NCBI GenBank assembly: GCA_030523305.1
Contig: JAUNIY010000002.1
Coordinates: 2-64,001, forward strand
Length of the DNA stretch: 64,000 nucleotides
Direction of reading: 5' to 3'
From: Eubacteriales bacterium
GTDB taxonomy: Bacteria > Bacillota > Clostridia > Oscillospirales > Butyricicoccaceae
The notes below the pieces were generated by a model that had not been told where the DNA came from, did no database searches, and was given only the letters and a program-made list of their open reading frames with translations. Numbering within the stretch: position 1 is the stretch's first letter; every line of letters starts with the position of its first letter. Shown here piece after piece: positions 2,401 to 25,735 of this stretch. Position numbers and translations under genes: made by a program.

Positions 2401-4065
2401 TTAATTGAGCACTGCACCCTTATTGGCCGAAGTGACCAGGCGTGCATAACGCGCAAGCCAACCGGACTTGACCTTCGGCTCATGCGGCACGAAGTTCTCC
2501 CGCCGTCTTGCAAATTCCTCGTCGGAAACCTTTGCATTGACCGTATGGTTCGGGATATCAATCTCAATGATATCGCCTTCCTGCAACAGCCCGATTTCTC
2601 CGCCCATCGCAGCTTCCGGGCAGACATGTCCGATGGATGCGCCGCGGGATGCGCCGGAGAAACGTCCGTCGGTAATCAGCGCAACGTCCTTATCCAGCTT
2701 CATACCAGCCAGCGCAGAGGTCGGGTTGAGCATTTCGCGCATGCCCGGTCCGCCCTTCGGGCCTTCATAGCGGATGATGACAACATCACCCGGGACAATT
2801 CTCCCGTTATAGATCGCGTCAATCGCTTCCTCTTCGCTGTCAAAGACACGCGCTGGACCAGAATGCTTCATCATTTCCGGTGCAACTGCGCTCTGCTTGA
2901 CCGCACAGCCTTCCTTGGCAATATTACCCCACAGGATGGCAATGCCGCCGGTCTGCATGTACGGGTTGTCAATCGGGCGGATGACCTCCGGATTTCTGTT
3001 GAAGCTGTTTGCGATATTCTCGCCAACCTTTTTGCCGGTCGCCGTGATGGTGTCCAGCTCAATCAGGTCTTTCTTGGACAGCTCATTCATCACCGCATAG
3101 ATACCGCCTGCTTCGTTCAGCTCCTGAATATAGGTGCGGCCTGCCGGCGCCAGATGACACAGGTTTGGAGTTTGTGCGGAAATCTGGTTCATGGTTTCCA
3201 GGTCGAAATCCAAGCCTGCTTCATGCGCAATCGCCAACAGATGCAGCACCGTATTGGTCGAGCAGCCCAATGCCATCTCGCATTCCAGTGCATTGTGGAT
3301 TGCCTTCTGATTGATGATATCGCGCGGCTTGATGTCCTTCTCCAACAGCTCCATGATCTTCATGCCGGCATGCTTTGCCAGCTGGATGCGGTCGGAATGG
3401 ACGGCCGGAATGGTGCCGTTGCCTGGAAGCGCCATACCGATCGCTTCACACAGGCAGTTCATCGAATTGGCTGTGTACATACCGGAGCAAGAGCCGCAGC
3501 CCGGACAAGAATGGCACTCGACATCCGTAATTTCTTCATCGGTAATCAGGTTTGCCTTGCGTGCGCCAACGGCTTCAAATGTATATGACAGGGAAACGTT
3601 TTCCCCACGGAAATGTCCGGCAAGCATCGGTCCGCCAGAAATGACAATGGACGGGATGTTGATGCGGGCCGCAGCCATAACCATGCCCGGAACAATTTTG
3701 TCGCAGTTCGGGATGAGCACCAGCGCGTCAAACTGATGTGCCTGTGCCAGCGTTTCCACAGAATCCGCAATCAATTCACGGGACGGCAGCGAATATTTCA
3801 TGCCCATATGGCCCATCGCAATGCCATCGCATACGCCGATTGCCGGTACCAGGATCGGCGTACCACCCGCCATGCTGACACCTGTTTTGACAGCCGCCGC
3901 GATTTTATCCAGATTGATATGCCCCGGAATGATTTCACTATAAGCGGAAACAACGCCGATAATTGGGCGGCTCATTTCCTCCTCGGTCAGGCCGCATGCG
4001 CGCAGCAGCGACCGATTTGGAACACGTTCGACACCCTTTGTGATATTATGACTTCTTAATTCCAT
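2401..4065 (-). CDS. ilvD: Dihydroxy-acid dehydratase
   Basis: [31 protein letters not shown] motifs; start MELRS with GGAGG RBS. Confidence 0.97.
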
Positions 4066-6444: not shown

Positions 6445-6725
6445 AAATAAAATAAAAAGCCCTTATCTCCATAGAAAAAGAGACAAAGACTATGCTCTGC
6501 GGTACCACTCTTATTGCCGCCGCAAACGGCGACCACTCATGCATCGGCGCAGGCTTCTGCGCGTAATGCTTGCCTGTTAACGGGGGCGCAACCGATTCAA
6601 GTTACTGGCAAACGCCTGTTCACCTGAACTGCTCGCGGACGACGTTCACTTCTTCTCCCTTATTGCCTCACACCAAACGGCAACTCTCTGAAAGTTTGAA
6701 CAAGCTACTCTTTCCGGTCTTTGCA
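6445..6725 (-). promoter_or_regulatory. T-box riboswitch, probable Val (GUC) specifier, with terminator
   Basis: Minus strand shows AAAAGAGTAG (GA/loop E), CAGAGAG (AG box), GGTGTGAG (GNUG), GAAC-GTC-G (specifier at 6641-6643) and the T-box AAGAGTGGTACCGCAG. Terminator GTCTTTGTCTC/GAGATAAGGGC plus T-run. Confidence 0.9.
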
Positions 6726-6745
6726 TTTATATATTTATATTATTC

Positions 6746-22049: not shown

Positions 22050-23024
22050 TTATCCCAGCGGCGCCCACAGCGCAAGCAGTATCCGCAGGCCGCACAGTGC
22101 AACCACCGCCACAGCGGAAGCCCAATACATCAGCCGGTTTGTGCGCACGATGTCCTCTGGTACAATCGGCCTCGTGTCATCGCCCAACGTCGGTTTTGGG
22201 TACAGCTTTCCAAAATAGTAAGCATCCCCCGCCAGCTGGACGCCCAGAGCCCCCGCACAGGCCGATTCCGTTTGCGCAGAATTGGGGCTGGCGTGTCGCA
22301 ATCGATCCCGCCGGAAGCATTTCCACGCGCCGCAGGCGCTCAGCCCCGCGGGTTTCGCACACAAAACAAACAGCAATCCGCTCAGCCGCGCCGGGATAAA
22401 ATTCCAGACGTCGTCCATTTTGGCGGAAAACCGTCCGAAATACAAAAATGTATCATTTTTATAGCCCACCATAGAATCCAGCGTGTTCACCGCTTTGTAA
22501 GCGAATCCCAACGGCGCGCCGCCGAGCAGCAAAAAGCACAACGGCGCAATGACACCGTCGCTGGTATTTTCCGCAACCGTTTCCACAGCGGCTTTTGTCA
22601 CCTGCGCTTCATCGAGCTGCGCCGTGTCGCGCCCGACAATCCACGAAACATAGTTGCGGGCCAGCTGCAAATCCCCCGCCTGAAGCGCATGGTACACGCG
22701 CAACGCCGCAATTTTCAACGACTTCGCGGCAAAAATCTGCCAGCAGAATATGGTTTCCAGCGCAAAGCGCACCGCCGGATGCAGCAAACCGGCAACCCAT
22801 AGCAGGGCAAACGGAAGCAAGCCGGATGGAATCACGACCAAAAACCACAGCCATACGCCTGCCCAGAATTGCCCGCGATCGGAATCCGGGAACCATTTGC
22901 GCAGCCGCTTTTGCCAAAAGGAAATCATCGCGCCAATGCCCATTACCGGATGCCACAGCCGTTCCGGATCGCCAAGGATGCAATCGATCAAAAATCCCAG
23001 AGCTACCGCCGCTACCATGCGCAT
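22050..23024 (-). CDS. cbiB: Adenosylcobinamide-phosphate synthase
   Basis: GDPERLWHPV, IVGRDT, ETVAENTSDG, YKAVNTLDSMVGY, SPNS; RBS AAGGAGG. Confidence 0.95.
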   Translation of the reverse strand: MRMVAAVALGFLIDCILGDPERLWHPVMGIGAMISFWQKRLRKWFPDSDRGQFWAGVWLWFLVVIPSGLLPFALLWVAGLLHPAVRFALETIFCWQIFAAKSLKIAALRVYHALQAGDLQLARNYVSWIVGRDTAQLDEAQVTKAAVETVAENTSDGVIAPLCFLLLGGAPLGFAYKAVNTLDSMVGYKNDTFLYFGRFSAKMDDVWNFIPARLSGLLFVLCAKPAGLSACGAWKCFRRDRLRHASPNSAQTESACAGALGVQLAGDAYYFGKLYPKPTLGDDTRPIVPEDIVRTNRLMYWASAVAVVALCGLRILLALWAPLG

Positions 23025-23344
23025 GTTTCCTCCTTGATACACTGCGGAATACCGCAGCATACGCGGTATACGCGATCCGCCCGCGCTGCAAGGTCGCAGC
23101 ACAGCCGCCCGGTGTGTTCGCGCCAATCGCGTTCCATCGCATCCATCGGCACCACACCGCAGCCCAATTCATTGCACACGACAGTTTTGCCCAAAAATTC
23201 CTCCGCCTTTGGTATCGGCCTTCCCTCCTGCATCGCTGCCTTGACGATGGCATGTAAATTGTCCACAATTTCGGTTTGCGGCGATATCGTTTTTGCAAAG
23301 GCAGTCTTACCCTGCGCCGCACCGCCAACGATCAATATGGTCAT
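23012..23344 (-). CDS. Short (110 aa) CobU/CobP paralogue
   Basis: GGAAQGKT P-loop plus VCNELGCGVVP...ADRVYRVCCGIP; central RIxxHxxxR segment absent. Confidence 0.85.
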   Translation of the reverse strand: MTILIVGGAAQGKTAFAKTISPQTEIVDNLHAIVKAAMQEGRPIPKAEEFLGKTVVCNELGCGVVPMDAMERDWREHTGRLCCDLAARADRVYRVCCGIPQCIKEETCAW

Positions 23345-23366
23345 TTTTCGTTCCTCTCGATCCGCA

Positions 23367-24146
23367 TCAGCGCATACACAAGCCGCAAACGACAGCCGCA
23401 AGCAGCGCAAGCGTTTCCATCATCGTAATACACATACCGCACAAATCCCCGGTAATCCCACCGAATTGCCTATAGCACAAGCGGACATGGTACACAAAGT
23501 ACAGCAGAAGCAGCACAAACACCGCAAGGCCGAAGCCTTTTCCCAAGAACAGCAGCCAGCAGACACTGGCGGCAATCCAGCCCGCCATCACATAGGATAC
23601 CTGCTTTTTGTCCGTGTTGTCCGCAAACATACGCGCCAGCCCGGAATCCTTTGCACACTTCTGCGTCACAATCAGATCGCCGCCAAAGGCGCGCGCCAAC
23701 GCATACCCCGCAAACAGGAATCCGGCAAACTGCGGCGTATCATACAGCTGTGCAAACAAGCCAAACTGCGCCAGCAGCAACACAACCATCCAGAGGATAC
23801 CGAAGGCGCCGACGTGTGGGTCCTTCAAAATTTCCAGCTTTTTTTCCGTTTCGCTGTATGAACACAGCGCGTCACAGCTATCGACAAAGCCGTCCACGTG
23901 AATCCCGCCCGTGATGGCAACTGGGAGCAACACCGCACCTGCCGCATACAGCATGGTATGCAACTCCCAATGCTGTGCCAGCAACAGCCAGCCATATTCG
24001 CACGCACCGACCAGCACGCCAATCAGAGGCAGAAAGCCCAGCGCATAGCGCATGGTATGCTTTTTCCATTCCACCTGTGGCAACGGCAATGCGGAATACA
24101 TTCCAAATGCGACGAGCAAGCCGCTGAAACAATCGCGCAATATCAT
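23367..24146 (-). CDS. cobS: Adenosylcobinamide-GDP ribazoletransferase (cobalamin synthase)
   Basis: TGGIHVDGFVDSCDA, ILKDPHVGAFG, FGGITGDLCG; multiple TM helices. Confidence 0.95.
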   Translation of the reverse strand: MILRDCFSGLLVAFGMYSALPLPQVEWKKHTMRYALGFLPLIGVLVGACEYGWLLLAQHWELHTMLYAAGAVLLPVAITGGIHVDGFVDSCDALCSYSETEKKLEILKDPHVGAFGILWMVVLLLAQFGLFAQLYDTPQFAGFLFAGYALARAFGGDLIVTQKCAKDSGLARMFADNTDKKQVSYVMAGWIAASVCWLLFLGKGFGLAVFVLLLLYFVYHVRLCYRQFGGITGDLCGMCITMMETLALLAAVVCGLCMR

Positions 24147-24673
24147 TCTATCGTCCCTTTTCTCATCACTGCAATGCCAAAAACGCTTTCCACCACGCAA
24201 TCCGCCCGCTGTGCCAATTGCTGATTGAGCACGCCGAGCGCATGCAGGTACCGCATGGTCCATGCATCGTAGGTCGCGCCGTCCGTGAAGATATCGTTTG
24301 TCACGACGACAACATGCGGGCAAGCTGCACACAGCCGGTCGATACCAGCCAGGATGCTTTGCTCCCATCCGTCCCCTGCGCCCTCGGGCGAAAACATTTC
24401 ATTTGCCAGTGCATTGCCCATGCATTCAAATAACGCTCCTGCATAGCCCGCCGGGACTGCCATCCGGTCAAACCGTTTGGCGTGTTCGAGCGTGGTAAAG
24501 CCCTTTCCGGCGCGCAGCGCACGATGACGCGCGATGCGTCGGCGCGCTTCCTCTCCATCCGGTTCCATTGCCGCGACGTATAGCATCGGCTTTCCATCCG
24601 CCAGCCGGCAGAGGATGGTTTCTGCCAGCTCGGATTTTCCGCTGGCAGCGCCGCCGGTTATCAAGACCAGCAT
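24143..24673 (-). CDS. cobU: Adenosylcobinamide kinase/guanylyltransferase
   Basis: ITGGAASGKS, RRIARHRALR, ECMGNALANE. Confidence 0.92.
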   Translation of the reverse strand: MLVLITGGAASGKSELAETILCRLADGKPMLYVAAMEPDGEEARRRIARHRALRAGKGFTTLEHAKRFDRMAVPAGYAGALFECMGNALANEMFSPEGAGDGWEQSILAGIDRLCAACPHVVVVTNDIFTDGATYDAWTMRYLHALGVLNQQLAQRADCVVESVFGIAVMRKGTIE

Positions 24674-24676
24674 GGC

Positions 24677-25735
24677 TCAGGACAGCGGCTGATACGCTTC
24701 GATGTTGCTGTCCTCGAAGGTATTGCCATTGCAGTACAACGCTGCCGCCGCGTCCAGCATCCCAAACATCAGCACCGCGCCGGTCCCCTCTCCGAGCGCC
24801 ATATGCGCGTCGATCAGCGGCTTGATGTCCAACGCCTGTTCCAGCAGCATCCCCGCCGGTTCCGCTGCATGGTGGGACGGGATCAGGTAATCCCGCACGG
24901 TCGGGCACAGACGCGCGGCGCACAACGCCCCTGCCGCCGAAATGACGCCGTCCACAATGACCGGTAAACCGCAGGCCGCACAGCCCAAAAACAACCCGGT
25001 CAGGCCGCACAGGTCGAATCCGCCAACCTTGGTCAACACATCGACCGGGTCGTGCTGATCCGGCTGCATCCGTTCCAATGCATCGGTAATGACCTGTATT
25101 TTCCGTTCCAATCCCGCTGTCGTTAGGCCGGAGCCTCTTCCGGTCACAAGCTCGATCGGCGCGCGCAGCAACGCCGCCACCACAGCGGAGGCCGTCGTTG
25201 TGTTACCGATACCCATTTCGCCGGTTGCAATGATATCATAGCCCTGCGCCCGGCACAGATACGCGGTTTCGATCCCGACTTCTATGGCGTGCAACGCCTG
25301 TTCCCGCGTCATCGCCGGCTCGTTTGCGATATTTTTCGTGCCATAGGCAATCTTGCGCCGCAGGATATGCTCGCCCGTCACCTCGCTCGCCACACCGATA
25401 TCCACCGGCAGGACATCCGCACCGGCGGCACGCGCCATATGGCACACGGTGGACGTACCCTTCGACAGGTTTTCCGTGATGATCTTTGTGACGTCCTGCC
25501 CGGTCTGGGAAACGCCTTCTGCCACAACCCCGTTATCCGCACACAGAATCACCACGCATTTGCGGCGCAGATCAATCGCCGGGGAACGGCGGATGCCTGC
25601 AATGCGGATCAGGAGCTTTTCCAGATCGCCCAAGCCATTCAGCGGCTTGGCAAGCGAATCCCAATGTACCTTTGCCCGCGCCATGGATTCATAATCCAGC
25701 GGCAAGATATCCTGTATCGTTTGTTCCAGCGTCAT
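24677..25735 (-). CDS. cobT: Nicotinate-nucleotide-dimethylbenzimidazole phosphoribosyltransferase
   Basis: LAKPLNGLG, ADNGVVAEGVS, GEMGIGNTT, GRGSGL, MALGEGTGA. Confidence 0.96.
   Translation of the reverse strand: MTLEQTIQDILPLDYESMARAKVHWDSLAKPLNGLGDLEKLLIRIAGIRRSPAIDLRRKCVVILCADNGVVAEGVSQTGQDVTKIITENLSKGTSTVCHMARAAGADVLPVDIGVASEVTGEHILRRKIAYGTKNIANEPAMTREQALHAIEVGIETAYLCRAQGYDIIATGEMGIGNTTTASAVVAALLRAPIELVTGRGSGLTTAGLERKIQVITDALERMQPDQHDPVDVLTKVGGFDLCGLTGLFLGCAACGLPVIVDGVISAAGALCAARLCPTVRDYLIPSHHAAEPAGMLLEQALDIKPLIDAHMALGEGTGAVLMFGMLDAAAALYCNGNTFEDSNIEAYQPLS

Follow-up and report, generated by a model that had tools for sequence, protein, structure and literature searches.

CobU/CobP (Pfam family PF02283; EC 2.7.1.156 and 2.7.7.62) is a homotrimeric bifunctional enzyme (Protein Data Bank (PDB) entries 1CBU and 1C9K), and for 25 years CobU has been treated as a self-sufficient homotrimer. 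In this study, we analyzed a stretch of 64,000 nucleotides (nt), referred to as the window, from a Eubacteriales bacterium of the family Butyricicoccaceae, which carries a block of nucleotide-loop genes on its minus strand at 19.4-25.7 kb. The block contains two members of the CobU family, here named cobU-L and cobU-S (with the products L and S), which point to a second architecture of the enzyme, split or tandem. We consider it somewhat better than an even bet, with a probability of about 0.55, that CobU in this organism is a two-subunit enzyme, in which L would be the catalytic subunit and S would complete the active site of L in trans.

The closest described relatives are CobU of Salmonella enterica and CobP of Pseudomonas, which share with the pair their fold and their position in the pathway beside cobT, cobS, and cbiB. 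As in CobU, a P-loop and the guanylylated His are present in L, and the NE-x-G-x-G-x-V-P and R..[FW]R[DE]..GR block is present in S. In contrast to CobU, the canonical residues are split over two polypeptides or two tandem domains, S is devoid of about 110 central residues, L has a conserved loop of its own (N[DE]IF[ST]DGxxY), and both proteins score below the NCBIfam cut-off for the enzyme. A parallel from the same pathway is provided by ArsA and ArsB of Sporomusa ovata, two CobT paralogues that reportedly form a heterodimeric phosphoribosyltransferase. In both cases, neighboring paralogues that differ in catalytic role would form a heteromer in place of a nucleotide-loop enzyme that is homomeric elsewhere. 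However, the enzyme family and the step are different, ArsA and ArsB are both full length whereas S is a deletion derivative, and the CobU pair is far more widespread. The beta and alpha subunits of F1-ATPase offer a more distant likeness, as one paralogue has a catalytic P-loop site and the other has kept the P-loop Lys but lost catalytic residues; by analogy with F1-ATPase alpha, S would supply arginines to a neighboring site, although CobU is a small transferase/kinase and not a motor. The archaeal CobY is a GTP:adenosylcobinamide-phosphate guanylyltransferase without kinase activity, the kinase being dispensable for de novo synthesis (PMC4626045). In contrast to the L-S pair, CobY has an unrelated fold and no partner subunit, and it is not present here.

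A full-text literature search turned up no account of CobU in a short, split, or tandem form, and NCBIfam holds no model specific for L or S. In the source records, L or S is usually named ‘bifunctional adenosylcobinamide kinase/guanylyltransferase’, and otherwise ‘adenosylcobinamide kinase’ or ‘hypothetical protein’.

Two CobU paralogues and the partition of canonical residues

The list of open reading frames (ORFs), together with Pfam and NCBIfam matches, gives the minus-strand order cobT, cobU-L, cobS, cobU-S, cbiB, cobD, and cobQ. A preliminary description of the locus had proposed that two CobU paralogues with complementary motif loss flank cobS. Both ORFs are indeed present, and the arrangement recurs widely (see below). 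The two genes and their distinguishing segments are as follows.

24143 to 24673, minus strand: cobU-L, encoding a 176-amino-acid (aa) full-length divergent CobU, the putative catalytic subunit (assigned from Pfam PF02283, NCBIfam NF004469, and the tree)
24632 to 24655, minus strand: P-loop of L, GGAASGKS, a Walker A motif with Lys13 and Ser14, the Lys and Ser being invariant in 74 paired L copies
24512 to 24538, minus strand: segment RIARHRALR of L, with His50 aligned to His46 of Salmonella CobU by a phmmer alignment to 1C9K
24257 to 24301, minus strand: L-specific loop TNDIFTDGATYDAWT, which stands in place of the canonical TNEVGxGIVP...R (alignment of paired L copies)
23012 to 23344, minus strand: cobU-S, encoding a 110-aa mini-CobU (C-terminal match to PF02283, AlphaFold2 model, and fold matches)
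23303 to 23326, minus strand: P-loop of S, GGAAQGKT, with invariant Gly and Lys and a residue after the Lys that is not conserved in the family
23105 to 23176, minus strand: canonical block of S, CNELGCGVVP...ERDWREHTGR (alignment to 1C9K; residues invariant in 81 S copies)

L matches PF02283 over its full length (102.1 bits, profile positions 1-166; gathering score 27 bits), but reaches only 75.6 bits against NF004469, the NCBIfam equivalog model for the bifunctional kinase/guanylyltransferase CobU, whose curated whole-protein cut-off is 161 bits. The preliminary description was right that L keeps its P-loop and the RIARHRALR segment; His50 pairs with the second His of the Salmonella QHH motif, which is His46 in 1C9K numbering. 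His46 is the guanylylation site of Salmonella CobU (Thomas et al. 2000, as cited in an excerpt of PMC8749415). Beside the Walker A Lys and Ser and this His with its flanking Arg residues, L retains Glu17, a Walker-B-like acid, Asn88, and Asn134. It carries all the recognizable elements for binding the nucleotide and for transferring phosphoryl and guanylyl groups.

Where Salmonella CobU reads TNEVGMGIVP, L reads TNDIFTDG in the alignment to 1C9K, a difference that had previously been taken for drift of the C-terminal motif. This interpretation is not borne out. The loop follows the motif N-[DE]-I-F-[ST]-D-G-x-x-Y-x-x-x-T, and D139, G140, Y143, and T147 are invariant in all 74 paired L copies; because it has invariants of its own, the loop is a conserved alternative rather than a decayed canonical one.

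S matches PF02283 only at profile positions 120-167 (49.9 bits) and scores 54.7 bits against NF004469, again below the 161-bit cut-off. Its layout comprises strand beta1, the P-loop, helix alpha1, and a short insert, followed by the C-terminal beta/alpha/beta core. Residues 1-20 align weakly to the strand-1/P-loop region of CobU, and residues 54-102 align to CobU residues 130-178 (1C9K), so that about 33 residues of S stand for about 110 central residues of CobU. Both the Walker-B-like strand and the whole His segment are missing. The canonical block of S, which continues as CNELGCGVVP...ERDWREHTGR...ADRVYRVCCGIP, contains the equivalents of CobU E135, G137, G139, V141, P142, R151, D/E152, G155, and R156. 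The absence of the His segment and the canonical NELGCGVVP block had both been recognized correctly in the preliminary description, whereas the P-loop GGAAQGKT had gone unmentioned. Across the S family, the Walker A position after the Lys is occupied by T, S, R, H, Y, L, or K. The 94 homologues of S are 105-132 aa long, with identity down to about 40%, and G7, G12, K13, G63, P66, R75, G79, A86, V92, and G98 are invariant in the family.

To follow individual residues, we aligned 30 canonical CobU proteins from Clostridia, 74 paired L copies, 81 S copies, and Salmonella CobU, and scored 48 near-invariant canonical columns for their survival in L and S (residues in 1C9K numbering). Sixteen of these columns survive in neither protein, and the remaining ones are distributed as follows.

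Retained in both L and S (7 columns): G6, G7, G11, K12, V132, E135, G174
Retained in L only (16 columns): S10, S13, E17, Y28, A30, R42, H46, R50, W/F54, T56, E58, L78, D/E80, N88, N134, N158
Retained in S only (9 columns): G137, G139, V141, P142, R151, D/E152, G155, R156, V168

R42, H46, and R50 are invariant in L but missing from S, and Asn134 is kept in 86% of L copies. Conversely, the nine residues of the canonical block of S (E135, G137, G139, V141, P142, R151, D/E152, G155, and R156) are kept in at least 98% of S copies, compared with 5% of L copies for G137, 0% for G139, 12% for P142, 3% for R151, and 15% for R156; for R148, the figures are 73% in S and 3% in L. The same relationship is seen with a profile built from S, which scores canonical CobU proteins higher (58-72 bits) than paired L proteins (18-51 bits). 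As judged from this alignment, neither L nor S carries the full set of canonical CobU residues.

Distribution, fusions and selection

No third or hidden canonical CobU was found in the genome of the window (97% complete), whose only PF02283 genes are those for L and S. Within its family in the Genome Taxonomy Database (GTDB), CobU was detected in 91 of 121 genomes, nearly all of which have exactly one full-length match, followed 1.1-1.5 kb downstream in the same orientation by a single match confined to the C-terminal part. Among 399 Clostridia genomes that were scored, full-length CobU is present in 131 and S in 28, the latter drawn from 12 or more GTDB families and corresponding to about one-fifth of the sampled Clostridia with any CobU. 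All 28 genomes with S also hold L on the same contig (82-138 Pfam bits), whereas none of the approximately 95 genomes with a canonical CobU (147-215 Pfam bits) has S. The co-occurrence survey that had been suggested for the pair gives a consistent picture in this sample, as S is always accompanied by a low-scoring L and is absent where CobU is canonical. Outside the Clostridia, S was found in eight genomes of other classes of the same phylum. When 185,579 species genomes were scanned with a pattern derived from an alignment of 14 sequences, 313 stretches that code for a relative of S were located, so that S-type proteins occur in at least 313 species genomes. The carriers include Butyricicoccus pullicaecorum DSM 23266, B. 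porcorum, Agathobaculum butyriciproducens DSM 100391, Intestinibacillus massiliensis, Eubacterium ramulus ATCC 29099, and Lachnoclostridium sp. An138, as well as metagenome-assembled genomes of Christensenellales and Oscillospiraceae.

The gene order is similarly conserved. In a sample of 80 related loci plus the window, L lies upstream of S on the same strand in 76 of the 81; three are cut by a contig end and two have a single ORF for L and S. At least 50 of these 80 related loci share the order cobT-L-cobS-S-cbiB-cobD-cobQ. In four of the 80 (the L010 type), the order is L-S-cobS, with L and S adjacent but unfused, and such loci may be intermediates between the split and the fused arrangements.

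Fusion of L and S in one reading frame was observed in two of the sampled loci (L056 and L079) and in three further genomes (G217, G455, and G327). A search with the L056 fusion retrieved 28 fusion clusters of 280-352 aa, with identity down to 35%, and every one of them has the order L then S and keeps both complementary sets of residues. Among the best 150 clusters at 50% identity from a library of 1.84 billion proteins, 85 are stand-alone S and 57 are fusions of the two proteins, in each case with L ahead of S. Two of the same 150 clusters are fusions of S to a CobC-type histidine phosphatase (P0437 and P0468, about 350 aa), and one is a fusion of an L-S unit to a BtuR/CobA adenosyltransferase (P0359, 507 aa); these proteins are further links to nucleotide-loop and adenosylation enzymes.

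Structure prediction with AlphaFold2 on the alignment of the 28 fusions gave, for one fusion of 295 residues, a confident and compact model with a predicted local distance difference test (pLDDT) score of 92.7 and a predicted template modeling (pTM) score of 0.87. Such a pTM exceeds what two domains placed independently of each other would give, and would indicate only a defined packing of L against S. The L domain of the model matches the CobU structures 9VIS, 8YKC, 8YES, 1CBU, and 1C9K with TMt values of 0.67-0.80. S modeled alone reached a pLDDT of 92.3 and a pTM of 0.83, and CobU structures fill the first 24 places among its PDB matches (TMq 0.62-0.75). Both the L domain and S are thus predicted to have the CobU fold with its RecA-like alpha/beta core.

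In a tree that also contained the 30 canonical Clostridia proteins and Salmonella CobU, L copies of all kinds (paired, fused, and solo) group in a single clade (Shimodaira-Hasegawa-like approximate likelihood ratio test (SH-aLRT) support 99; stem 1.56 substitutions per site), which indicates a single origin of L, and fused L domains occur at no fewer than three places. Among the window and 15 close relatives, the ratio of nonsynonymous to synonymous substitution rates (dN/dS, Nei-Gojobori method) does not exceed 0.33 for S, where the median is 0.17; the median for L is 0.13. These values are approximate because dS is near saturation in many pairs; the proportions pN (0.07-0.21) and pS (0.48-0.74) give the same picture. 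A Shine-Dalgarno (SD)-like core is found 5-18 nt upstream of 78 of 79 S genes. Both L and S are under purifying selection, and the L-S pair is a conserved system rather than a decaying duplicate. Decay of the short copy, which had been envisaged as a dN/dS near 1, is not what was found.

Two further kinds of CobU-like protein were noted. In three genomes of one genus (G487, G256, and G362; GTDB family f47, genus g132), CobU matches the Pfam profile only from positions 17-24 onwards in frames of 228-277 aa, and these proteins appear to be N-terminal variants or fusions. Another CobU-like protein (L118; contig G375:C21, positions 2901-3458) is devoid of the guanylylated His (RRIEYNNSK), its genome has no CbiB match, and it may be a degenerate or repurposed CobU.

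The proposed two-part enzyme and its rivals

In the mechanism that we propose, cobU-L and cobU-S would encode a two-part CobU, built as a heteromer here and from tandem domains in the many lineages with fused genes, that would run the step from adenosylcobinamide (AdoCbi) or its phosphate (AdoCbi-P) to AdoCbi-GDP in nucleotide-loop assembly. L would be the catalytic subunit, with a sensor-like Asn134 and the guanylylated His. S would be a CobU core that has shed the His helix as well as the Walker-B strand, and it would supply the G-x-G-x-V-P loop behind strand beta4 together with R151, D/E152, G155, and R156 of the helix that comes next, all lost in L; its own P-loop, in which the Lys but not the Mg-binding Ser is kept, would be a non-catalytic phosphate-binding site. 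In this manner S would complete the active-site cleft of L in trans, much as the alpha subunit of F1-ATPase supplies an arginine finger to beta, and the homotrimer would have become a pair of a catalytic and a non-catalytic subunit by complementary degeneration.

It is well established for AAA+/RecA-like P-loop NTPases that a polar residue at the tip of the equivalent strand serves as the cis-acting sensor 1, and that downstream arginines act in trans on the nucleotide of the neighbor. In CobU, the P-loop reportedly sits at the bottom of a cleft that is formed by two protomers. By analogy, the retention pattern would fit such an arrangement, as L keeps the cis Asn134 and has lost the arginines, whereas S keeps the arginines and has lost the cis elements. 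Physical association of the separate L and S proteins, a trans role of the S residues, the stoichiometry, and the dependence of one or both activities on S are inferences. The earlier proposal that the paralogues have subfunctionalized in a complementary manner and work together fits the co-occurrence, the partition of residues, the purifying selection, and the L-then-S fusions. More tentative, and in our view somewhat short of an even chance, is the broader claim that an obligate heteromeric or tandem-domain CobU characterizes a large monophyletic group of Clostridia, in which a 110-aa pseudo-enzyme would supply a loop and arginine fingers in trans.

One caveat applies to a two-part enzyme of this kind. 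Inside the L group there is a small clade without S, consisting of genus g5 of the window's own family and genome G384. In these solo copies (L119-L122, from G384, G004, G044, and G058), the loop has been remodeled to VTISGL, a change that we count in favor of the proposal, and the arginines are missing as well and have not been regained. L-type proteins can thus apparently evolve to do without S, and any notion of an indispensable S is weakened accordingly. The branch of the clade is long (1.32), consistent with remodeling after the loss of S. Its operon in genus g5 looks intact (cobQ-cobT-L-cobS-cobC, with cbiB present nearby), and no hidden S was found there downstream of cobS, where the next gene encodes a CobC-type phosphatase. 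That L can exist alone would be easier to reconcile with S as a non-catalytic adaptor or substrate handler, docking L or passing AdoCbi-P within a membrane-associated complex with CbiB, CobS, and CobC, and leaving the active site of L as it is. We regard this explanation as rather unlikely, although it has several points in its favor. The S gene is located between cobS and cbiB and overlaps the start of the latter in a conserved order, S is found fused to CobC and the L-S unit to BtuR/CobA, and a P-loop that has the Lys but not the Mg-binding Ser would be suited to binding a phosphate monoester, for instance AdoCbi-P; moreover, a membrane-associated multienzyme complex for nucleotide-loop assembly has been proposed (PMC8749415). 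However, S conserves exactly those canonical CobU invariants that are lost in L, which points to a shared catalytic or substrate site and not to a mere docking surface, and L is by far the commonest fusion partner of S, with 57 clusters compared with two for CobC.

A division into two separate enzymes, as the preliminary description had also considered, is less favored still, and we think it improbable. L would then be a GTP:AdoCbi-P guanylyltransferase, and S would be needed, alone or as a helper, for the AdoCbi kinase activity used in salvage. It is true that His46 is kept by L and not by S, that the transferase-only CobY demonstrates that the two activities are separable in nature (PMC4626045), and that genus g5, which keeps cbiB, could have lost S because de novo producers can dispense with the kinase. 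However, L retains all the equipment of a P-loop kinase in addition to that for guanylyl transfer, whereas S, without a Walker-B strand and without a conserved Ser/Thr in Walker A, is unlike such a kinase. The solo-L clade counts against S as the kinase as well, since G384 has no cbiB match and its kinase activity would have to come from L alone. No CbiZ was detected in G004, G044, G058, G384, or the genome of the window, so that an alternative salvage route in the genomes that lost S is unsupported, although this finding does not separate the hypotheses. The frequent covalent fusion of L and S also argues for one machine. Finally, the shortness of S, its missing His segment, and its score below the equivalog cut-off might suggest an inert remnant of a tandem duplication that is carried along in the operon. 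This explanation is scarcely credible: S as a decaying remnant was rejected on the basis of the median dN/dS of 0.17, the SD-like sites in front of 78 of 79 genes, and conservation down to about 40% identity, and S is furthermore spread over many families and several classes, has a confidently predicted fold, and is kept within fusions.

If the two-part enzyme is real, ‘cobU present’ in genome-based predictions of vitamin B12 synthesis, as well as heterologous expression of a single gene, would mislead for these gut bacteria, and the second architecture reaches cultured butyrate producers of the gut, e.g., Butyricicoccus pullicaecorum, Agathobaculum butyriciproducens, Intestinibacillus massiliensis, and Eubacterium ramulus. 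It could therefore matter for predicting which gut bacteria make or salvage cobamides and for engineering of the B12 pathway. The system would also be a natural case of the transition from homomer to heteromer by complementary loss, in which fused, split, and partner-lost states can all be compared, and it offers a route to learn the role of the conserved C-terminal block of CobU.

Neighboring genes and other elements of the window

The genes that surround the pair on the minus strand are as follows.

24677 to 25735, minus strand: cobT, nicotinate mononucleotide (NaMN):base phosphoribosyltransferase (ORF), the first gene of the block cobT-L-cobS-S-cbiB-cobD-cobQ
23367 to 24146, minus strand: cobS, cobamide synthase (Pfam PF02654, 155 bits)
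22050 to 23024, minus strand: cbiB, AdoCbi-P synthase (Pfam PF03186, 361 bits)

In most of the 80 related loci, L is preceded by a cobT homologue. The ATG of cobS overlaps the stop codon of L (TAGAATGA), and the ATG of cobU-S is preceded by GAGAGGAA. The start of cbiB, located behind GGAGGAA, overlaps the last 13 nt of cobU-S, which suggests that the two genes may be translationally coupled, and the order S-cbiB is kept in most of the related loci.

Despite the large cob/cbi cluster, no cobalamin riboswitch was detected in the window at the Rfam gathering score. The sole Rfam match at that score in the window is a T-box leader (RF00230, 133 bits) at positions 6476-6730 on the minus strand.

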